From: Bdellovibrionota bacterium
Lineage (GTDB): Bacteria > Bdellovibrionota_C > UBA2361
Assembly: GCA_044352465.1 (NCBI GenBank)
Contig: JBILDU010000099.1
Location: 1-10,632, forward strand
Reading direction: 5' to 3'
Length of the DNA stretch: 10,632 bases
The first letter of the stretch is position 1; every line of letters starts with the position of its first letter. The notes under the pieces were generated by a model. The model ran no database searches and was not told the DNA's origin. It was given only the letters and a program-made list of their open reading frames with translations. A program made the translations under genes and the position numbers. Shown piece after piece: positions 762-10,459 of this stretch.

Positions 762-1109
762 CTATTGCACCAGGATGAGAGCCCCGGCTTCATTAGAGCT
801 CCCCATTTCTTTTTTTTCTGCGACTAGCTCCTCAACGAGCTTAGACATCACGGAGTCTTTGCGCTTGAGCTTCGCCTCAAGCGCATCCACCTTCACTCGG
901 AGCTGCTTCGACTCCTGCTGCTCGTCAGACTCGAATGCTCTCACCCCGTTCTCGAAGAATCGACGCTGCCACTCGTAGAACACGGTCGGATGGAGCTTCA
1001 TCTCATCACAGATCGCCGAGATATCCTCCCGCTCAATCAGGTGCCGCTTCAAGAGCGCCACCTTCTCCGCCGCCGTGTAACGCTGCCGCTTCTTTCGACC
1101 TCTGCTCAT
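762..1109 (-). pseudogene. IS3-family transposase OrfA (HTH); orfB absent from the window
   Basis: ATG at 1109 follows AGGAGG. RQRYTAAEKVALLKRHL...ISAICDEMKLHPTVFYEWQRRFFENG resembles an OrfA HTH, followed by a coiled coil. It ends at an A8G slippery run (817-809). Confidence 0.85.
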
Positions 1110-1189
1110 CGCTATCCTCCTGTTAAAAAACACGAGAATAGTAAGTTACCTCAACAGGTCAGATGTTCGTTTTCCGGGGAAGCGGTACA
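768..1189 (-). mobile_element. IS3-family element, left part (IRL + orfA + frameshift window)
   Basis: Candidate 5'-TG terminus TGTACCGCTTCCCCGGAAAACGAACA starts at 1189, 80 bp upstream of orfA. The element is interrupted at 767/768 by the IS1111 left end. Confidence 0.7.
777..817 (-). promoter_or_regulatory. Programmed -1 frameshift signal of the IS3 element (A AAA AAG plus downstream stem-loop)
   Basis: The - strand reads AAAAAAAAG-AAATG-GGGAGCTC-TAATGAAGCCG-GGGCTCTC: an 8-bp stem with 2 G-U pairs, 5 nt after the slippery site. Confidence 0.6.
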
Positions 1190-1530: not shown

Positions 1531-2355
1531 CTAGAAACCCTCGCCGTAGCGCGCGGCCGAAACCGCCCCCTTCGAGGCGTCCCCAAGCAACTTCACCACC
1601 ACCTCAGCAACCCCCGTCGCCGACGCGGGATTCTGGCCCGTCACGAGCCGTTCACTAACCGCCACCATCTTCTCAAAATTCGGTGCCTCAACGAACCTAG
1701 CCCCCCGCGCGCGGAGCGCCGCTTCGAGCGCGAACGGCACCACCCGCTCGAGCTTCACGGAGATCTCCTCCTCATCGGTAAACGCCGAGACCTCCTTCCC
1801 CGCGACCAAGTACTCCCCGTTCGAAAGTCTCACGTTCACAAGAGCCGCCGGCCCGTGACACACCGCCGCCACCACACCGCCCCGCTCGTACACCGCACGG
1901 ACTATCTTCTGTACCCCCGGATCATCGGGAAGATCCCACATCGTACCGTGCCCGCCAGCAAAGAAGATCGCATCATACTGGGCGGGATCGACCGCCTGGA
2001 GCGCCGCCGTCGTTCGGGTAAGCTCAACAAGCGCCGGGTCATCCAGGAACGCTGCGTTCATCGGATCGCTCCGGTCAACCCCGTCCATCGGCGCCACCCC
2101 GCCCCGCGGAGACAAGAAATCGATAGAGTACCCAGCAGCTCTAAACACCTCGTACGGATGGGTCACCTCAGAGAGAAAAAACCCGGTCGACCGCCCGGTA
2201 TCACCAAGCTGCCCGTGGTTCGTAAGGACAATCGCAACCCGCTTCGGCTCCCCTGCCGAACCGGGCCCCATCCTAGACCCCACACACCCTACGAGCGCCA
2301 TACAGAGACCACAAATGAGCGCCGCCCAAAAAACACCCCGATTACCACTGCTCAT
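1531..2355 (-). CDS. DJ-1/PfpI (type 1 glutamine amidotransferase-like, Hsp31/glyoxalase III-like) protein with lipoprotein signal peptide
   Basis: Motifs TGFFLSEVTHPY, YDAIFFAGGHGTMWDL, AVCHGPAAL (nucleophile Cys-His) and LVTGQNPASA. The N-terminal hydrophobic stretch ends in lipobox-like LVGC. Confidence 0.93.
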   Translation of the reverse strand: MSSGNRGVFWAALICGLCMALVGCVGSRMGPGSAGEPKRVAIVLTNHGQLGDTGRSTGFFLSEVTHPYEVFRAAGYSIDFLSPRGGVAPMDGVDRSDPMNAAFLDDPALVELTRTTAALQAVDPAQYDAIFFAGGHGTMWDLPDDPGVQKIVRAVYERGGVVAAVCHGPAALVNVRLSNGEYLVAGKEVSAFTDEEEISVKLERVVPFALEAALRARGARFVEAPNFEKMVAVSERLVTGQNPASATGVAEVVVKLLGDASKGAVSAARYGEGF

Positions 2356-2684
2356 AGTATGCGCCCCCTACGCCCTGCACATTTCAAACTGCACCTTTTT
2401 CACTGCATCTCTGCCACTATGTAGATCGCTGTCGCACCAAGAGCGTATGCCCGAGATTCGACCGAATCAAGGTCGTAATCATCTCCATCGCATGAAGCCC
2501 CCTACCCGTTTGGTGCGTGGCACCCCGAACGCCATCATCCAAAAGCTTTTTTTCATCGCGCACCTCGGCACGAGCCTAAATCCCGACGCCGTCGTTGCCT
2601 ATACCCGACACTCACACCGACGAAAACCACAGTAACGGAGAAAACCATTGTCGACCTAAACGTCAAGATGATAACCTTAGGTTT

Positions 2685-3317
2685 GTGAAACGCTTCATTC
2701 CGGCCCTTGCGATCTCTATCGCCACGAGCTTTCTCCCCCAGCCGTTCGTTGGCGTTAAAACCGCCGCGGCAGCCCCGTACACATTCACTGAGAGCGATTA
2801 CCTCGAATACGGCATCTACTTCTCTGAAGGTCGTGGAGCCCCCGCCTCAAAGTTACTCACCCTTCGTTACGGCGATATCGACACCTACTACGCCGAAAAA
2901 CTCCCGTGGGTAAAAACCGTACCAACCGCGCGGCAAGAGCTCCGCTTAACAACGAGGCGCGGATCTATCAGAGTACTTAGAAACGACAACACCGGAGTCA
3001 CCGTCACCCGCGACACCTACAACGAGAAAAAGAGAACCGGCACCAAGCGACTTGAAATCCGCTTCGACAACGGACGGTGTACCGACAAGGCCGGAGTACG
3101 GTCGCCCTGCTCAGTGGAACTCTCCCTTCGAACGAACGAGCCCGATAGAGCTGTTATTCGTCAACGCCGCATCCTCCGCATCACCACCTCAAGCGGCCTC
3201 CGCTTTACCTATCGATCCCTCCGCTCAGACGGGAGCAAACCGCTCAGCCCAGCGCTTCGCCTCGCCCCGGCGATTAATAATTACGCTTGGGAGTGGCGCC
3301 CACTGGTTGCGAAATGA
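2685..3317 (+). CDS. Hypothetical secreted, Arg/Lys/Thr-rich protein (~210 aa)
   Basis: The in-frame GTG at 2685 gives a signal-peptide-like N-terminus (MKRFIPALAISIATSFLPQPFVGVKTAAA|APY). The ORF is long with natural-looking composition and has a hairpin at its stop. Confidence 0.7.
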   Translation: MKRFIPALAISIATSFLPQPFVGVKTAAAAPYTFTESDYLEYGIYFSEGRGAPASKLLTLRYGDIDTYYAEKLPWVKTVPTARQELRLTTRRGSIRVLRNDNTGVTVTRDTYNEKKRTGTKRLEIRFDNGRCTDKAGVRSPCSVELSLRTNEPDRAVIRQRRILRITTSSGLRFTYRSLRSDGSKPLSPALRLAPAINNYAWEWRPLVAK

Positions 3318-3339
3318 TCGTAACTTCGGCGATCGTTTC
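3311..3339 (+). terminator. Stem-loop overlapping the stop codon, possible terminator
   Basis: GAAATGATCGT-AACTTCG-GCGATCGTTTC forms an 11-bp stem with G-U pairs; there is no clear U-tract. Confidence 0.35.
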
Positions 3340-3391
3340 CGATTACGGCGATTTTAACGAGCGGGCCTAGGGAGCATCGCACCCCTCTCTC

Positions 3392-3594
3392 TGGTACGCC
3401 CCAACTCCTCAATCACGATGTCTCCATTGGCGACAGAAGCCCTAACATGTGGATTACTCCTGAATAATTCCGCCGCTATTGTTTAATGGGTTTATATATA
3501 AAACGGGAATCGAATCGGTGTCCGAGGATGACTCTGGCCCCCAAAAACCTCCCCACGCGCACCGAAAATGGACGCGTAAAGTTGGGGCGTACCA
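3392..3594. repeat. Perfect 15-bp inverted repeat pair bounding a 203-bp segment
   Basis: TGGTACGCCCCAACT (3392-3406) and AGTTGGGGCGTACCA (3580-3594) are exact reverse complements. Confidence 0.85.
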
Positions 3595-3916
3595 ACCAAC
3601 CCCGGCCAGCGGCAGACGATAACTATCACCGCAAGCGGGGAACGGTTCATCACCTTGAGAGAGGCGCGTAGCGGCTTTCGCTGCGGGTTCTCTGCCACCA
3701 AATCAGGTTGGTCACCGATACAAACAAATTTGACACTGCGTTAACACCCCATCTCACGGGGCTTCAGTCGGTCTCGGGCCCAAAAAAGTTCCGTGGTCCA
3801 TCTCCTTTCGCCGGTGCGAGGTGAAGTGGCGCATCAACGCGCCAATCAGGGACACGCTCAATCCGCTGAAGAGAGCGCCACAAAAACGGGATCCTCGGTA
3901 GGCCATGGATTGCTGG

Positions 3917-4624
3917 CTACAGCGGATCGTACCGGCAATCAACGACAAGCTCTCGCACCGTCGCCCCCCGACCGAGACTCAGGAGATAGCGCACCGTCTT
4001 CACGATATCGTCGGTTTGGATTCGATCTGCCGCCGCAACATGGGAGTGTCGGGCCATCTGGGTATCGACCCAACTTGGACAGATCGCGGTCACTGAGATT
4101 CCGAGCGGCAGGAGCTCCCGATAGAGACAATCTGAGAGACCTGAAAGGGCAAACTTCGAGGCGGTGTAGCCACCGACGCCGGCGAAGCCGTGTTTACCGC
4201 AGACGGACGAGAGATTGAACAGATATCCGCTACCTTGTTGGCGGAACACCGGGACGACCGCTTTCGCGAAGGAGAAGGCGCCGGTAACGTTGACCGCAAG
4301 CATTCTTTCGAATTCCTCGACCGAAAGATCAAGCGAGCCCTGGGTATTCATTCCAGCGTTATTGAAGAGGATATCGAGACTTCCCCACGCACCGACAAGC
4401 TCCTCCACCACCCGGGGGGCAAGGGTCGCCTCCGCCACATCGCCCACGAAAACTCGCACCCGTGCTGGGTCGAGCTCACCCGAGATCTCTCGCGCCACCT
4501 CCTCTAACTCACCCGCCGACCGAGCGACGAGACCGACTCGATACCCGTCGGTAGCGAGGGCAACCGCCACCGCGCGCCCGATTCCCCGTCCAGCTCCCGT
4601 CACGAGGGCCACTTTATCCGGCAT
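3917..4624 (-). CDS. Classical SDR oxidoreductase, NADP(H)-type; candidate sepiapterin/pterin reductase
   Basis: TGAGRGIG, NNAG, catalytic S (NLSS) and YTASK. Arg in the Gly motif and after beta2 (VARS) suggests NADP(H). Its RBS AGGAGG overlaps the folE2 stop codon. Confidence 0.92.
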   Translation of the reverse strand: MPDKVALVTGAGRGIGRAVAVALATDGYRVGLVARSAGELEEVAREISGELDPARVRVFVGDVAEATLAPRVVEELVGAWGSLDILFNNAGMNTQGSLDLSVEEFERMLAVNVTGAFSFAKAVVPVFRQQGSGYLFNLSSVCGKHGFAGVGGYTASKFALSGLSDCLYRELLPLGISVTAICPSWVDTQMARHSHVAAADRIQTDDIVKTVRYLLSLGRGATVRELVVDCRYDPL

Positions 4625-4632
4625 AGAGCCTC

Positions 4633-5643
4633 CTAACAGATAAGGGCGTTGAAATCGGTGAAATCGGCGCTGAATCCTCCGGGCACCCCTTTGCAGATTA
4701 CCGCTACTGCATCGTGAGAATGCAGCGACTCAAGGTGTGAGCACGCAACTTCAAAATCACGAATCCGCTTATCACGATCGAGCACCCCGAAGAGGAGCCG
4801 GCTCGCGTCTTCAACAAATTTAATGTAAGCCCCATTCATCTCGGCGAAAGCCTGCTCATCATCGCGCTTCACCATCACCTGAGTTTCGGTCTTGAGCGCT
4901 TCGAGACAAAGCTCTTGAAGATCTTCGACCCACAATTTCTTCCCCGGTGCCACCTCTATTCGAATTCGCGCCTTGCTCCGCTGCGAATGCGGTATACCGT
5001 ATCGTCCCCGGGTATCGCGCGCATGCTCGGTCAGCTCGGCCGAGCACGGACACGCCGAAGAGTAAACGAAATCGAAGGTAAGGTAGCGACGCACCCGATT
5101 GGTACGATCGATCGTGGCTTCGTATACCGAGCGATAAAACTGATACCCTTTCAAATTACTGCGGAGGCTCGTCTGAAGGATGGGATACGAAAATTGCACC
5201 TTGAGCCGGGCATCGAGGCTACCCACCTTCTTTCGGTAGGTCTCGAGAATCGTTGTCAACGTATCGAGCGAAAACGTTTCTTCCCGATGGTCATAAAAGC
5301 TCCGCACGATGCGGGACATGTTGATCCCTTTGATATTTGCTTGCAGCGACACCGACCCGGTGACCGCGGCTTCAAGCAGCCACGCCCGCCCGTGTCGCCG
5401 CGCGAAGGAGAGTGGAACCTTAAAATTCGAAACACCCACCTGGTGAATCGGCACGTTAGCTCCCTGAATGGCACGCTCAGCGAGCATCATGTCAGGCAGA
5501 GATGCGTAATACTCTTTGGAGGGGCGGAAACTCGCATCAAAGGTGCGGTCGAGCTTCGGTTTCTCACCTTTGTTGTGATGGTGAAGATAAAGCTCCGGGT
5601 CGCGCGTTGTTTTCTTCTTCCTGGAGTTCTTCTTTGCTACCAT
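4633..5643 (-). CDS. folE2: GTP cyclohydrolase IB (FolE2)
   Basis: Motifs [44 protein letters not shown] and [15 protein letters not shown] at 5643 follows GAGGG; TTG at 5649 is an alternative start. Confidence 0.95.
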
Positions 5644-5761
5644 ACCCAACCCTCTTCATTCTCGCTGTATACTGGCTGAAAGCCCCACCCTCCACAACAA
5701 CGCGACCGGAGCATGGGGTATTGAGGGAAATTCTCCCCCGTTTGCGGCTGACTTAGTCGGG

Positions 5762-6172
5762 CTACCGCGGCCCCCGATATTCGACCCAGTTCCGTTCGGT
5801 TTCGAAGAGCTTCACCGCGACCAGTTTTCCGCGGGGGATCTTGGCTTCAAGTCGGCGCCAAAAGATCATCGCGAGATTCTCAGTTGAGGGGATAACGCCG
5901 CTCAGAAAGGGGACATCAAGATTTAGATTTTTGTGATCGCAGTGCACCACGATCTCTTCCTCTAAGATCTTTTTCAAAACGCCGAGGTCGATCACGTAGC
6001 CGGTCTCAGGATCGATGTCCCCACCCACCGTCACCTCGATTCGATAGTTGTGGCCGTGCCAATTCGGCGAATTGCACAAACCATACGTCTGCCGATTCCA
6101 CTCATCCGACTTGGTTGGGTTATGGAGCCGATGAGCGGCGTTGAAATGAATCTCGCGGGTAACCAGCATCAT
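5762..6172 (-). CDS. 6-pyruvoyl-tetrahydropterin synthase/QueD family (COG0720) protein with PTPS-II-type CX5HGH motif
   Basis: Motifs FNAAHRL, CNSPNWHGHNY, GYVIDL, DHKNLN, PSTENLA and ETERNWVEY. The likely start is ATG 6172 after GAGGT (the ORF track starts at 6202). Confidence 0.93.
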   Translation of the reverse strand: MMLVTREIHFNAAHRLHNPTKSDEWNRQTYGLCNSPNWHGHNYRIEVTVGGDIDPETGYVIDLGVLKKILEEEIVVHCDHKNLNLDVPFLSGVIPSTENLAMIFWRRLEAKIPRGKLVAVKLFETERNWVEYRGPR

Positions 6173-6265
6173 GATGCAACCTCGGGCTAGGTGAATCTCC
6201 ATAGGAGGATAGCACGAGCGCCTTGAATTTGGTACGCGATTCGGCCCAGAGAGGAGAAGGCCCCC

Positions 6266-7057
6266 TTAATGCCCCGCGGCGAGACGGGAAGGCGGGCTCA
6301 CGAGGCCGAGAAACGAGTTCAACTCGTCGAGGATGCCGGTCAGAGTCGGGGACCATGTAGCGGGATCGGCACGCATATCAACGAGGCCTTCAAGGAGAAG
6401 CTCACAAGCAAACGGCGTCGCGCGGTCCGGGTGAGTCACCATAACTGCTCGGCGCGAGACGTCCCACGCACATACCGCGACGGTGCGCCCTGCCGACCCT
6501 CCGGCCGCCACAACAGCGCGGGAGATGAAATCGGTGGTACCGGCCACGATGGTGAGGTCGGGTTGAAACTGGAGCTGGAAGCGCCGCGCGGCGAGAAATG
6601 CTCGCGCCGCTGACAACATAAATCGCCGCAGCACCTGCTCATGTTGCGGGTTGTTTAGATCTGGTCGGCCGACGTTGAAACGATTCTGCCACGAGCCAAG
6701 TGCGAGGTTGAAAAGATTCTGCCCTTCGAATTGGGCCCACGGCAATTCATCCACGGCAAGGTTGGTAACGACTCGACGCGAGAGCTCGACATCTGCCGGC
6801 TCAAGGTGACGGGATAACTCCTCAATCGTTAAACCACCCCACTGCGCGAACTCGCGCTGCTCTGCCATACAACGGAAACAGGTCTGGAAGCTGCGCGACC
6901 ACCCACCCTCTGCATCTCGATCGCAGAGCGAAAAGAGGCCGTTACAACGGAGCTGAACCACATCGGGGAAGGAACGACGCAGATAATTTCCTAACAGGAA
7001 AATCAATCCGCTTTCCTGGCTGAGCACCCCAAACGGCGAAAAGAGTCCAACCCTCAT
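6266..7057 (-). CDS. Hypothetical protein with C-x6-C-x14-C-x2-C motif; resembles the N-terminal Rossmann half of GT-B/capsule-synthesis proteins
   Basis: Starts MRVGLFSP (beta1-like) and has an internal FQPDLTIVAG motif. Cys38/45/60/63. ATGA overlap with the upstream gene. Confidence 0.75.
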   Translation of the reverse strand: MRVGLFSPFGVLSQESGLIFLLGNYLRRSFPDVVQLRCNGLFSLCDRDAEGGWSRSFQTCFRCMAEQREFAQWGGLTIEELSRHLEPADVELSRRVVTNLAVDELPWAQFEGQNLFNLALGSWQNRFNVGRPDLNNPQHEQVLRRFMLSAARAFLAARRFQLQFQPDLTIVAGTTDFISRAVVAAGGSAGRTVAVCAWDVSRRAVMVTHPDRATPFACELLLEGLVDMRADPATWSPTLTGILDELNSFLGLVSPPSRLAAGH

Positions 7058-7803
7058 AAAGCACTCACTGAAACAGCGCGCCGGCTCTCCGGCTCCCGAT
7101 ACACCGCAAAATAGGCGACCCCACGAGGTGGTTCACCGAGCTGAACGGCGCGGGTCACCGACTCGCCCCAACTACACTCTTGGCGCACCCCATCATCCCA
7201 AACCGTGCCGTCAAAGGAGATCTCCTCGATCGAATCGGCCGCCACCGTTGGGGCGGCAAGAGAGGCCTGGACGAGCTCTCCTTCCCACGGTCGGGCCGAG
7301 CTGGGACGCACACCGAGCAACGGGACAAAGGGGTTGCCGCTCCGGTTAATGACGACAAGACTGGTGGTCTGAAATCTATCTTGTTCCGCGATAAGCGGCG
7401 CCAGCGGCGTCCGACTCCGCCCGGGGTGGTCGAGGAGGACCGGACGAAAGCGCACCGCCCCCCCGCCTCCTGGCGTGCTGCGGGATATCTCGATGACGCA
7501 CCCTGAGGCGGAGAGGTCCATCCGTTGCTGGACCCCTTCAAGGTCGATCTGCAGCCCGACCAAACGCCCGTCGAGTACGGTCGCTGTTTCAGGAAAGGCG
7601 TCCTCAAGTCTCAAACCGTCCGGCTGGCCGAGCCGGGCCCCCTCAAGGGTAACGGCCCGGGTCGGTAGCCCCGCCCCAAAAATAGTGAGGCGACACTCGG
7701 TCACGTACGGAGCAGACACGTTGCTCGAGAACGGGAAAAAGTGCACCACAGCGCGCGTCAGGGTACCGGTGGGGAGAAAAGCTAACCACGATACGGTCTG
7801 CAT
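7054..7803 (-). CDS. Hypothetical beta-rich protein
   Basis: ATG at 7803 follows a strong GGAGGAGG. Its stop overlaps the next start (ATGA). No signal peptide or TM helix is evident. Confidence 0.8.
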   Translation of the reverse strand: MQTVSWLAFLPTGTLTRAVVHFFPFSSNVSAPYVTECRLTIFGAGLPTRAVTLEGARLGQPDGLRLEDAFPETATVLDGRLVGLQIDLEGVQQRMDLSASGCVIEISRSTPGGGGAVRFRPVLLDHPGRSRTPLAPLIAEQDRFQTTSLVVINRSGNPFVPLLGVRPSSARPWEGELVQASLAAPTVAADSIEEISFDGTVWDDGVRQECSWGESVTRAVQLGEPPRGVAYFAVYREPESRRAVSVSAL

Positions 7804-7921
7804 AGCTGTTCCTCCTCCCAAAAAATATTCTTATCGCCACCGCGAGTCATCGGGAGTCACCTTGAATTGGGCCATTCAGCCTGGGCCATAAAGAGTACCC
7901 TTAAACACCACCTGAGGTCCG

Positions 7922-8617
7922 CTAACTCACCATCGCGAACGCATCACCCTCACTGCGCTCGTCGCGAGCTCCGACCCGACTCAATATCTGTACCCCGAAG
8001 GTGGGGTCCCCTTTGGTACTGATCCGGAGGTATCCCGGCACGGCTTCGCCGAGCGTCCCCCCCGATACGGTCCCAAACTCAGCCGTAAGGCTCACAAGTC
8101 GTGCCCCGTGCGGCGGGACCTCCACGAAGCATTCAGGGGTCCGCTTGCCGAGGATCAACCGAACTTTCACCACTCCAGCGACATCGCTCCGATTCACCAG
8201 ACACACCACGGAGTCGAGCCCAGCTCCAAAGCTAACCGGCGCGAACATTGAACGGTGGCTCGTCAGTAACGTGGCCTCCGGGTAGGCCACCGCACCCGCG
8301 CGGCTATGTAATCGGCAAAGGTGCCGTGTCCCTGCCGGTGAGGACACCTCGAGGTGCCCGTGCCGAAAGCCGCTCTCGAGCTTACACTCTCCGAGGAACT
8401 GCTCGAGCTCGAGCACCCCTACTCGCCCTGGCTCAACCTCTAGTGAGACCTTATTTACCAGCCCACCATCGGCGTCGAATAAGCTCAGCACGGTGGCACC
8501 ACCCGTGGTCTCGACAAGCGGGGGGGCCACGAAGAGTGTCGTTTCAAAAAACGGGAAGGTCGCCACCCAAAAGTGCGACACGACACCGTCCAACGCTACA
8601 TTTGTCCCGAGGCTCAC
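7922..8617 (-). CDS. Hypothetical beta-rich protein with apparent internal two-domain duplication
   Basis: 231-aa ORF with a GTG start downstream of an AT-rich intergenic region. It has alternating beta-strand patterns and a repeated 'EV.P....L.L..F'-like segment. Confidence 0.8.
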   Translation of the reverse strand: MSLGTNVALDGVVSHFWVATFPFFETTLFVAPPLVETTGGATVLSLFDADGGLVNKVSLEVEPGRVGVLELEQFLGECKLESGFRHGHLEVSSPAGTRHLCRLHSRAGAVAYPEATLLTSHRSMFAPVSFGAGLDSVVCLVNRSDVAGVVKVRLILGKRTPECFVEVPPHGARLVSLTAEFGTVSGGTLGEAVPGYLRISTKGDPTFGVQILSRVGARDERSEGDAFAMVS

Positions 8618-8619
8618 CG

Positions 8620-8710
8620 TTACACCCTGGATTTAAACGATTTTTTTAATGCTCTTCTAAAAAAGAGCGAATAAAAAGCCGTTACTTTAACAAGCTAAAA
8701 GTAAACTACA
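8620..8710 (-). promoter_or_regulatory. AT-rich probable promoter region of the - strand gene run
   Basis: GC drops sharply, with A/T tracts and a dyad GCTCTT...AAGAGC (8651-8669), immediately upstream of 8617. No -35/-10 pair could be assigned. Confidence 0.35.
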
Positions 8711-8871
8711 TCCACTCGTCTCACGCCAGTCTGATTGTCACTCCGGCGCCACGATTGCAGGGTGAAGATATCGGTTCTTACACGGTGGCCGGAGAACGGC
8801 GGTCCGTGGTGGGTGGACGGTACCAAGTTGTTTTTCGCGGAGGCTTCGCTCGATGCAGAGGAAGGCGGGCA

Positions 8872-8899
8872 GGCAGCGGTCCCCTCAAGGGGCCCTGTC
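8872..8899 (-). terminator. GC-rich hairpin downstream of the FlgO-like gene
   Basis: The - strand reads GACAGGGCCCC-TTGA-GGGGACCGCTGCC, about 35 nt after the stop; there is no U-tract. Confidence 0.3.
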
Positions 8900-8934
8900 G
8901 ACAGAATATAAGTACCCCGAGCCCCCTACCCCGA

Positions 8935-9759
8935 CTACTTCAGTGGGGGCGGCGCTGGGCTCTTCGCGCTTTTCTCGGGAGCGGGCAACTTCGGCTCAAC
9001 GGCGAGCTTCGGCGCCGCAGGGGGCACGGTCCAATCTTGAGATTCGAGGGTATCCTCACGCTCCTCAAAGCGACCGAGCGGATAAGTGGAGAAACCAAGC
9101 CGTTTGACCGGAATACGCTCGAGCGATGTCGTCATTCCCCCGCCACGCAGCAAACGGGCTAACTCAGGGGTTTGATCGAGGTCCACTGAACCCGCGGACA
9201 TTACGACCGAGGTGCTTGGATCAAGAAGCCGCGCGTTCACGTACACCCGTATCGGGGAAGCGACGTACGTGCCGACCACAACTCCTCCGAGCGTCCGCTC
9301 TCGACGAACCGAGCCGATATCGCGGGAAAGTCCGAGCTCTCCTGTCGACGACAAGAACTGAAGCGCATCGGCGTGGCGTAACTCAATCACATCGTATCCG
9401 CGCATCGAGAGCTCACTCATCATCTGTTCGGAGAACAGTCGTCCGAACGTCGAGCTTTTGTAGAGATCATCGGCGTTCACAAGGGTCGTCACCCCGATCG
9501 GACCGGGGTTGATACCGCGGTAGTACGCATCGATCTGATCGACGATAACAGCGGTCTTAAATCGACCGCTGGTCCGCGGAGCTTCGGGCTGCACTGCGGC
9601 CGAGGTTAACGTCGGAACCTGTCCGACCGGTCGCTGACACCCGCTGAGCGAAAGGAGCATCGCGACGACGGCGGTGAGGTGGCATACTCTTTGAAGAGTC
9701 TTGCAAGAAAGCGTGGCACCGCAACGAACTGAGCGACAGTGTATGAAAGGCAAGCGCAT
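8935..9759 (-). CDS. FlgO-domain outer-membrane lipoprotein with Pro/Lys-rich tail
   Basis: IGVTTLVNADDL..SSTFGRLFSEQMMSEL..RGYDVIELR, GELGLSRD, VVVGTY and VYVNARLLD match the FlgO-family pattern. Lipobox LSGC. The start codon is uncertain. Confidence 0.85.
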   Translation of the reverse strand: MRLPFIHCRSVRCGATLSCKTLQRVCHLTAVVAMLLSLSGCQRPVGQVPTLTSAAVQPEAPRTSGRFKTAVIVDQIDAYYRGINPGPIGVTTLVNADDLYKSSTFGRLFSEQMMSELSMRGYDVIELRHADALQFLSSTGELGLSRDIGSVRRERTLGGVVVGTYVASPIRVYVNARLLDPSTSVVMSAGSVDLDQTPELARLLRGGGMTTSLERIPVKRLGFSTYPLGRFEEREDTLESQDWTVPPAAPKLAVEPKLPAPEKSAKSPAPPPLK

Positions 9760-9790
9760 AACCAACCCTACGATTTAAAGAGGAATTCCG

Positions 9791-10459
9791 ATGTCCACCA
9801 GCGAATCCCTACGTAACGTCCGTGCCATTTTCTTGACACTTCTCAGTGTCATCGGCACCAGCGGGTGTGCCTCTCTCGAGCCCCGCTTCCAAGTCAACCA
9901 AAACTGCAGCTCGCGAGTCTATGTGAGCGCCCCGATAGGCCAACAGCTCAGCTCCCGCAACGGAGCCGACCATCCGAGCCGCCTCGCCGTGATCCCGTTC
10001 GCGGTCCCCGCGAATCTTGCGGGTTCGAGCAACGAGCTGCCCGGCCTCGGCAACACACTCGCGTGGAGAGTTCACGCCGAAGCGCTCGCTTCGGGGGAAT
10101 TCCCTATCACTGAAGTTTTTAATCGGCAGGACTGGCCCGGAAAAAAAGAGGAGTTTTTTACCGGCAACTTCGGCGCGATATCGCTCGCTCAGGAAGCGGG
10201 CTATGGTCTTGTTTTAACAGGTTTTATTGAGAACTTACGCGACCTCGACTCCCTCACCGCGCACACCAAACTTATCGATGTTTCATCGGGGATTACTCTC
10301 TGGTACGGCAAATCGAGCGTCCGCGCGGTCGAGCACCGCGATCCAACGGTGTTCGATTCGATGTGGCGCAGCACCGATAAACCGGCGGAGATGTACACCG
10401 CCTCGATAGCGGACGATCTGGGGCGATGCATCGTTCAAGGTATCCTCTCGCAACGTTAG
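9791..10459 (+). CDS. Lipoprotein with CsgG/LpoB/TolB-N-like fold
   Basis: RBS AGAGGA and lipobox TSGC. RLAVIPF, LAQEAGYGLVLTGFI and KLIDVSSGITLW follow the CsgG/TolB-N superfamily pattern. Confidence 0.8.
   Translation: MSTSESLRNVRAIFLTLLSVIGTSGCASLEPRFQVNQNCSSRVYVSAPIGQQLSSRNGADHPSRLAVIPFAVPANLAGSSNELPGLGNTLAWRVHAEALASGEFPITEVFNRQDWPGKKEEFFTGNFGAISLAQEAGYGLVLTGFIENLRDLDSLTAHTKLIDVSSGITLWYGKSSVRAVEHRDPTVFDSMWRSTDKPAEMYTASIADDLGRCIVQGILSQR

Follow-up and report, generated by a model that had tools for sequence, protein, structure and literature searches.

A candidate tetrahydrobiopterin-type operon with a type IB GTP cyclohydrolase in an uncultured order of Bdellovibrionota

Three adjacent genes in a 10,632-nucleotide stretch of DNA from a Bdellovibrionota bacterium (hereafter the window) encode a PTPS, FolE2 and an SDR. 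We find it likely, with a probability of roughly 0.6, that they form an operon for the de novo synthesis of a biopterin-type pterin by a tetrahydrobiopterin (BH4)-type pathway. In the scheme that we propose, FolE2, by the function of its family, would convert GTP into dihydroneopterin triphosphate. The PTPS, judged by its motif, similarity and context to be a PTPS-II, would then produce 6-pyruvoyl-tetrahydropterin, and the SDR would carry out two NADPH-dependent reductions of the side-chain carbonyls to give a tetrahydrobiopterin isomer, a role assigned to it from gene context only. FolE2 would also supply folate. The SDR would be a resident gene of the order, and the PTPS-folE2 pair, related to Verrucomicrobia pairs, would take the place held by a different PTPS-folE pair in other members of the order.

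Table 1. Features of the candidate pterin operon in the window.
Feature	Position	Strand	Family or basis	Length
PTPS	5762..6172	-	PF01242	136 aa
FolE2 (GTP cyclohydrolase IB)	4633..5640	-	PF02649, NF010200	335 aa
Classical SDR, 3nyw-like subfamily, candidate pterin side-chain reductase	3917..4624	-	PF00106	235 aa
Shine-Dalgarno sequence (AGGAGG) before the SDR; overlaps the stop codon of folE2	4625..4635	-	read from sequence	

The window is a complete contig (C126) of an assembly of 3.13 Mb in 170 contigs that is 94.9% complete, which we call G000. The order to which it belongs has 91 genomes, and most of our searches took in 61 of these. Relatives of the SDR and of a neighbouring gene that have names carry the labels Bdellovibrionota, Bdellovibrionales or Proteobacteria. 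As the initial annotation had it, the three genes are adjacent and co-oriented, all on the minus strand and in families PF01242, PF02649 and PF00106 (Table 1). Direct reading of the sequence also agreed with its claim that the ribosome-binding site of the SDR overlaps the end of folE2: the TAG stop codon of folE2 overlaps the AGGAGG before the SDR start, and 8 nt separate the two genes. This arrangement suggests translational coupling of the SDR to folE2. The gap between PTPS and folE2 is 121 nt. PTPS could just as well start at 6175, where there is another ATG in frame. No match to a sigma-70-type promoter was obtained at window positions 3300-9000, and none to a terminator downstream of the SDR. 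Between G000 and G001, a genome of the same genus, dN/dS for the three genes was 0.11, 0.024 and 0.029, rough values given a dS of 1.3-2.1, which is near saturation. On each of the three, selection between these two genomes has been purifying.

The co-oriented gene directly upstream (6266-7057, minus strand) was considered as a further member of the operon and rejected, because it is an order-wide gene, matched in 52 of the 61 genomes, and lies on a different contig from the trio in G001. Its product has no Pfam or NCBIfam family; in an Atlas structure search it resembled capsule-synthesis proteins (PF05159) in part, without reaching the bar. Two more co-oriented upstream genes, 7054-7803 and 7922-8617, are likewise without a family match. 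The rest of the window carries, at the contig end, the N-terminal part of an IS110-type transposase and a gene for an HTH_Tnp_1 transposase (180-716 and 762-1133, minus strand), a DJ-1/PfpI protein with a lipoprotein-like N-terminus (1531-2355, minus strand) and a protein without a family match (2595-3317, plus strand). At the other end, a gene for a FlgO-domain protein (8935-9765, minus strand) is divergent from a gene without a family match (9791-10459, plus strand), with a gap of 25 nt.

The window PTPS resembles the animal enzymes. Matched to the PTPS of rat and human it reaches 141 bits, compared with 40 bits for the E. coli QueD structures in the PDB. In the alignment to the rat and human proteins, the histidines that presumably bind zinc and the presumed active residues (the cysteine, the Asp-His and the Glu at the C-terminus) all correspond. 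Its motif, C-N-S-P-N-W-H-G-H, has the form CX5HGH. In the part of PMC5041015 available to us, PTPS-II is defined by CxxxxxHGH and PTPS-III by ExxHGH. The window protein has neither this ExxHGH nor the QueD-type spacing CxxxHGH. We therefore assign it, from its sequence, to the mammalian-like PTPS-II type, with 6-pyruvoyl-tetrahydropterin as the predicted product. As a separate observation, a PTPS of two domains, the first of them containing SX5HGH, immediately precedes folE2 at three metagenome loci (L131:2265-3104, L143:364-1266 and L145:3044-3895).

The PTPS could also be the QueD of the queuosine pathway, making 6-carboxy-tetrahydropterin. It is the sole PTPS found in G000, where tgt is present, and elsewhere in the order queE adjoins the operon of G027, a genome in which one PTPS was found. 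Three long-loop PTPS of the order (G013, G049 and G042) have CX3HGH spacing, which together with the queE gene of G027 counts against an unqualified PTPS-II assignment across the order. Nevertheless, we consider this reading highly improbable for the window. Its PTPS stays under the QueD cut-off (TIGR03367, 66 versus 89 bits) and does not group with QueD in the tree, and a separate QueD-type gene exists in G015, G031 and G046. A scan of the 12 window ORFs agreed with the initial annotation that queC, queE, queF, folK and folP are missing from the window. In the whole genome, we obtained weak, partial QueC-family matches, in longer frames, and the QueC, QueE, QueF and QueD of relatives had no tblastn match. 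The separate queD that the initial annotation had suggested looking for was thus not found in G000. Because queC, queE and queF were not found there either, a queuosine role of the trio is unlikely, and the case that the annotation had named against itself, a PTPS that is the QueD of the genome, gained no ground.

FolE2 is over its NCBIfam cut-off (NF010200, 273 bits versus 215). Compared with the structures 3d2o and 8g6c, it retains the CPC, H, E and E-x-x-H positions, which are presumably metal-site residues. It is the sole GTP cyclohydrolase I found in G000. A search of this genome (94.9% complete) found no FolE, so FolE2 would have to feed folate as well. The closest named relatives of FolE2 outside the order come from Opitutaceae and Puniceicoccaceae, with 64-69% identity. 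A second, divergent PF02649 group of about 310 aa occurs at loci L218-L221 (G069, G015, G014 and G021), with no PTPS neighbours in the fetched loci.

For folate synthesis, G000 has folK, folP and folA, and the genome search gave no match for folB. The gene is absent after ispF, at a place inside a contig (G000:C146, about 10100-10190) where G001 has it, leaving an apparent hole in the folate route. One could propose that the PTPS replaces FolB, giving 6-hydroxymethyl-dihydropterin as PTPS-III does, and that the operon is a folate module; G004, G015 and G028 also lack a folB match. We regard this as improbable. The motif of the PTPS is CX5HGH and not ExxHGH, folB is found in 9 of the 13 genomes with the operon, G001 among them, and the SDR would be left unexplained, folA being present. 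In G000 alone, the PTPS may have a FolB-like side activity. Two candidates for missing or related folate genes were rejected. A FolB tblastn match at window 8805-8945 (E 0.001) was due for the most part to an N-terminal extension of the query that is itself doubtful, and an SDR between folK and folP on C160, considered as FolM, lies outside both SDR clades and is without TGX3RXG.

The description of the window SDR as sepiapterin-reductase-like, given in the initial annotation, did not survive closer comparison. S140, Y153 and K157 are invariant across 76 homologues, and the basic residues R13 and R36 presumably point to NADP(H) use. When the PDB was searched with the SDR, with its C-terminal half and with a profile of the 76-sequence family, the best match was each time 3nyw, a putative oxidoreductase. 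Sepiapterin reductase was absent from the best 60 matches in each of the three, and no animal sepiapterin reductase was among the best 60 for the SDR itself. The structural model of the SDR is confident (pLDDT 97). It matches 2bd0, the sepiapterin reductase of Chlorobium tepidum, with Z 32.3 and 27% identity, at rank 11 of 1000. This comparison does not discriminate, because many SDRs score within a narrow range, the highest of them at 33.7. Animal sepiapterin reductase binds the pterin through Asp257. Asp233 of the window SDR is near this C-terminal position, though apparently shifted by one residue, and three of the 12 operon SDRs (G015, G027 and G028) have no C-terminal Asp. Phe99 and Trp196 are named as substrate-site residues of Chlorobium-type sepiapterin reductase in the portion of PMC7520308 that we consulted. 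Neither residue has an equivalent in the window SDR or in its orthologues; in these proteins a Trp is located six positions before the expected one. TGX3RXG, described as the pteridine-ring-reductase motif in the accessible part of PMC13259868, is also absent, with Gly in place of Arg.

In the best of our quick trees, the window SDR is separate from the Chlorobium-type clade; a joint clade had a p-AU of 0.093 and was not rejected in a test on 28 rows, in which the SDRs of loci L129-L136 were used in place of the Chlorobium enzyme, the Chlorobium sequence itself being left out. A search of the genome contigs with the window SDR gave at least 16 loci, two of them close among the matches listed. 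The window SDR is a member of the 3nyw-like subfamily and, judged by its sequence, is unrecognisable as a sepiapterin reductase, so its role has to be read solely from gene context.

This result bears on a reading in which FolE2 and PTPS-II do make 6-pyruvoyl-tetrahydropterin and the SDR has another role, so that the end product is not BH4. It might reduce the side chain only once, regenerate a cofactor or catalyse something unrelated. The position of the SDR in the trees and the absence of the known substrate-site residues speak for such a reading, as do the solo members of the SDR group and the PTPS-folE2 pairs without an adjacent SDR that are described below. We consider it rather unlikely, since 12 of the 15 SDR orthologues keep to the PTPS whatever the cyclohydrolase, one of them stands next to phhA with no cyclohydrolase, and in other operons this slot is taken by a reductase of the Chlorobium type. 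The joint clade that was not rejected also counts against it.

Synteny of the trio across genomes, a check that the initial annotation had proposed, was found. An SDR orthologue (E < 1e-35) is present in 15 of 61 genomes, and in 12 of these 15 it lies beside a long-loop (PTPS-II-clade) PTPS, with the same gene order in relatives. The gene between the two is FolE in seven genomes (G013, G019, G027, G031, G049, G054 and G058) and FolE2 in four (G000, G001, G028 and G046), and G015 has PTPS and SDR without a cyclohydrolase between them. G004, whose contig ends with a PTPS-folE2 pair and the first part of an SDR, is the fifth FolE2 genome and with the 12 above makes up the 13 operon genomes. FolE has no match in any of the five genomes with a FolE2 operon. 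The long-loop PTPS of G042 is split at contig ends, and the SDR is unmatched there. The co-occurrence table for SDR and PTPS, with G004 counted as SDR-negative, is 12/3/2/44, giving a p of 2e-8 that is overstated by kinship. The SDR stands alone, with no pterin gene nearby, in G014, G052 and G057 and at locus L019. The PTPS-cyclohydrolase-SDR trio is a conserved unit in the order, beyond chance.

The neighborhood of the pair in G015 points to a possible use of the product. There, hppD, accompanied by hmgA-like and FAA-hydrolase-like genes that also belong to tyrosine breakdown, is divergent from PTPS-SDR-phhA, so that the pair lies between hppD and phhA, both of which are above their NCBIfam cut-offs. 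The same PhhA subtype, 59-64% identical to that of G015, occurs in four genomes from three families, and all four have the operon. The other 18 of the 22 matches to aromatic amino acid hydroxylase (AAAH) are 29-37% identical to the G015 PhhA or have no match to it. Taken as a whole, AAAH is found in 7 of 13 operon genomes versus 14 of 48 others, which is not significant (p 0.11); for pterin-4a dehydratase the counts are 11 of 13 and 23 of 48. The product of the operon probably serves phenylalanine hydroxylase in several relatives. An FA-hydroxylase gene that adjoins the SDR in G028 was rejected as a candidate user: it matched OlsE only, below the cut-off, and was unrepeated beside the other operons examined. 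In a different genus of the order (g11: G012, G030, G041, G048, G053, G057 and G060), AAAH and pterin-4a dehydratase are present in 7/7 genomes, PTPS in 0/7 and FolE in 2/7. Reliance of this genus on outside pterin is possible.

The search for BH4 users that the initial annotation had recommended came back empty in G000 (94.9% complete). We found no AAAH there, either by search or with an unfiltered profile of the relatives' enzymes, no NOS (0 of 6 genomes checked) and no FA-hydroxylase or AGMO-like gene. A PruR-like PF00174 protein was also absent from G000 (0 of 5 genomes checked). Genes like hppD and hmgA are present in G000, as is pterin-4a dehydratase. The dehydratase gene lies directly before secA in both G000 and G046 (L017:1489-1779 and L016:6038-6352), which makes its place beside the G046 operon weak evidence. 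In all, 6 of the 13 operon genomes have no match to AAAH, FA-hydroxylase or NOS. Three of the six are G000 and G013, each 95% complete, and G046 (81%); the remaining three are G004 (79%), G001 (78%) and G054 (76%).

We then consider metagenomes. Of the FolE2 loci in metagenomes, 303 in number, we examined the best 80. A PTPS is present at 17 of them and an SDR match at 10, and most have neither. Five of the 80 carry PTPS, folE2 and a full-length SDR in the order seen in the window, and two more have a cut SDR; PTPS-folE2 pairs without an adjacent SDR are found at L131, L139, L145 and L146. The SDR of L135, the sole one of the five searched, is 28% identical to the window SDR. Its best PDB match is the Chlorobium sepiapterin reductase 2bd0, and it retains the F99, W196 and C-terminal Asp positions. 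The five SDRs form one clade, and two of them are on contigs labelled Opitutaceae or Verrucomicrobia. From the L135 match and this clade, we conclude that a Chlorobium-type reductase does occur in operons built on FolE2. In the tree, the window PTPS joins the PTPS of these metagenome loci (support 96) and is separate from those PTPS of its order that are linked to FolE, whereas the window SDR groups with the SDRs of its order (support 99). The simplest reading would be that a PTPS-folE2 pair was swapped in front of a resident SDR.

The proposal of the initial annotation, a BH4-like pathway that starts from a type IB cyclohydrolase, stands in part. It is supported by synteny, by the exchange of FolE and FolE2 in the same slot, by the linkage to phhA and hppD in one relative and by the Chlorobium-type reductase that holds the SDR slot in Verrucomicrobia-labelled contigs. 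What fell away is a recognisable sepiapterin reductase and a BH4 user in G000.

The known pathway of Chlorobium tepidum, which gives L-threo-BH4, has the same three enzyme classes as the window trio, and the SDR fold and the Ser-Tyr-Lys triad are common to both. The window differs in that its cyclohydrolase is FolE2 and its SDR is without equivalents of F99 and W196; the Verrucomicrobia-labelled contigs, with their 2bd0-like SDR in the same operon slot, are of the Chlorobium type in this respect. The animal pathway (GCH1, PTS and SPR) has a PTPS akin to that of the window, where the cyclohydrolase is type IB instead. The PTPS-III that bypasses FolB and QueD (PTPS-I) share the T-fold family with the window PTPS, and their motifs do not fit. 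PruA, FolM and PTR1 of the monapterin route are, like the window SDR, SDRs that act on pterin or lie near pterin genes; the window SDR differs in the missing TGX3RXG and in having a PTPS-II as its partner. An operon type of PTPS-II and reductase is already published: in the text of PMC5041015 that we could draw on, PTPS-II of COG0720 clusters with sepiapterin reductase, is predicted in about 50 bacteria and has FolE named for the first step. The window PTPS likewise has CX5HGH, is closest to animal PTPS and is found with a cyclohydrolase and a reductase, whereas its trio uses FolE2 where the published first step is FolE. Among literature titles and abstracts, we found no FolE2-based BH4 operon and no such operon in Bdellovibrionota or Opitutus.

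The known logic of the pathway is left unchanged by the window operon. If our reading is true, an uncultured order joins the producers of biopterin, which the accessible part of PMC13259868 describes as rare in bacteria, and a type IB cyclohydrolase can feed a BH4 route. It would also provide a candidate function for the SDR subfamily in which 3nyw, labelled no more than 'putative oxidoreductase', is the single structure solved. More speculatively, and we hold this to be rather unlikely, the 3nyw-like SDRs could be a second, independently recruited bacterial sepiapterin reductase, and the six operon genomes without a user could point to an undiscovered pterin-dependent enzyme or a signalling role in the order; possibly these SDRs give a different stereoisomer of biopterin. 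If the operon does make a biopterin, the missing consumer of the cofactor in G000 is a lead to new pterin-dependent chemistry.
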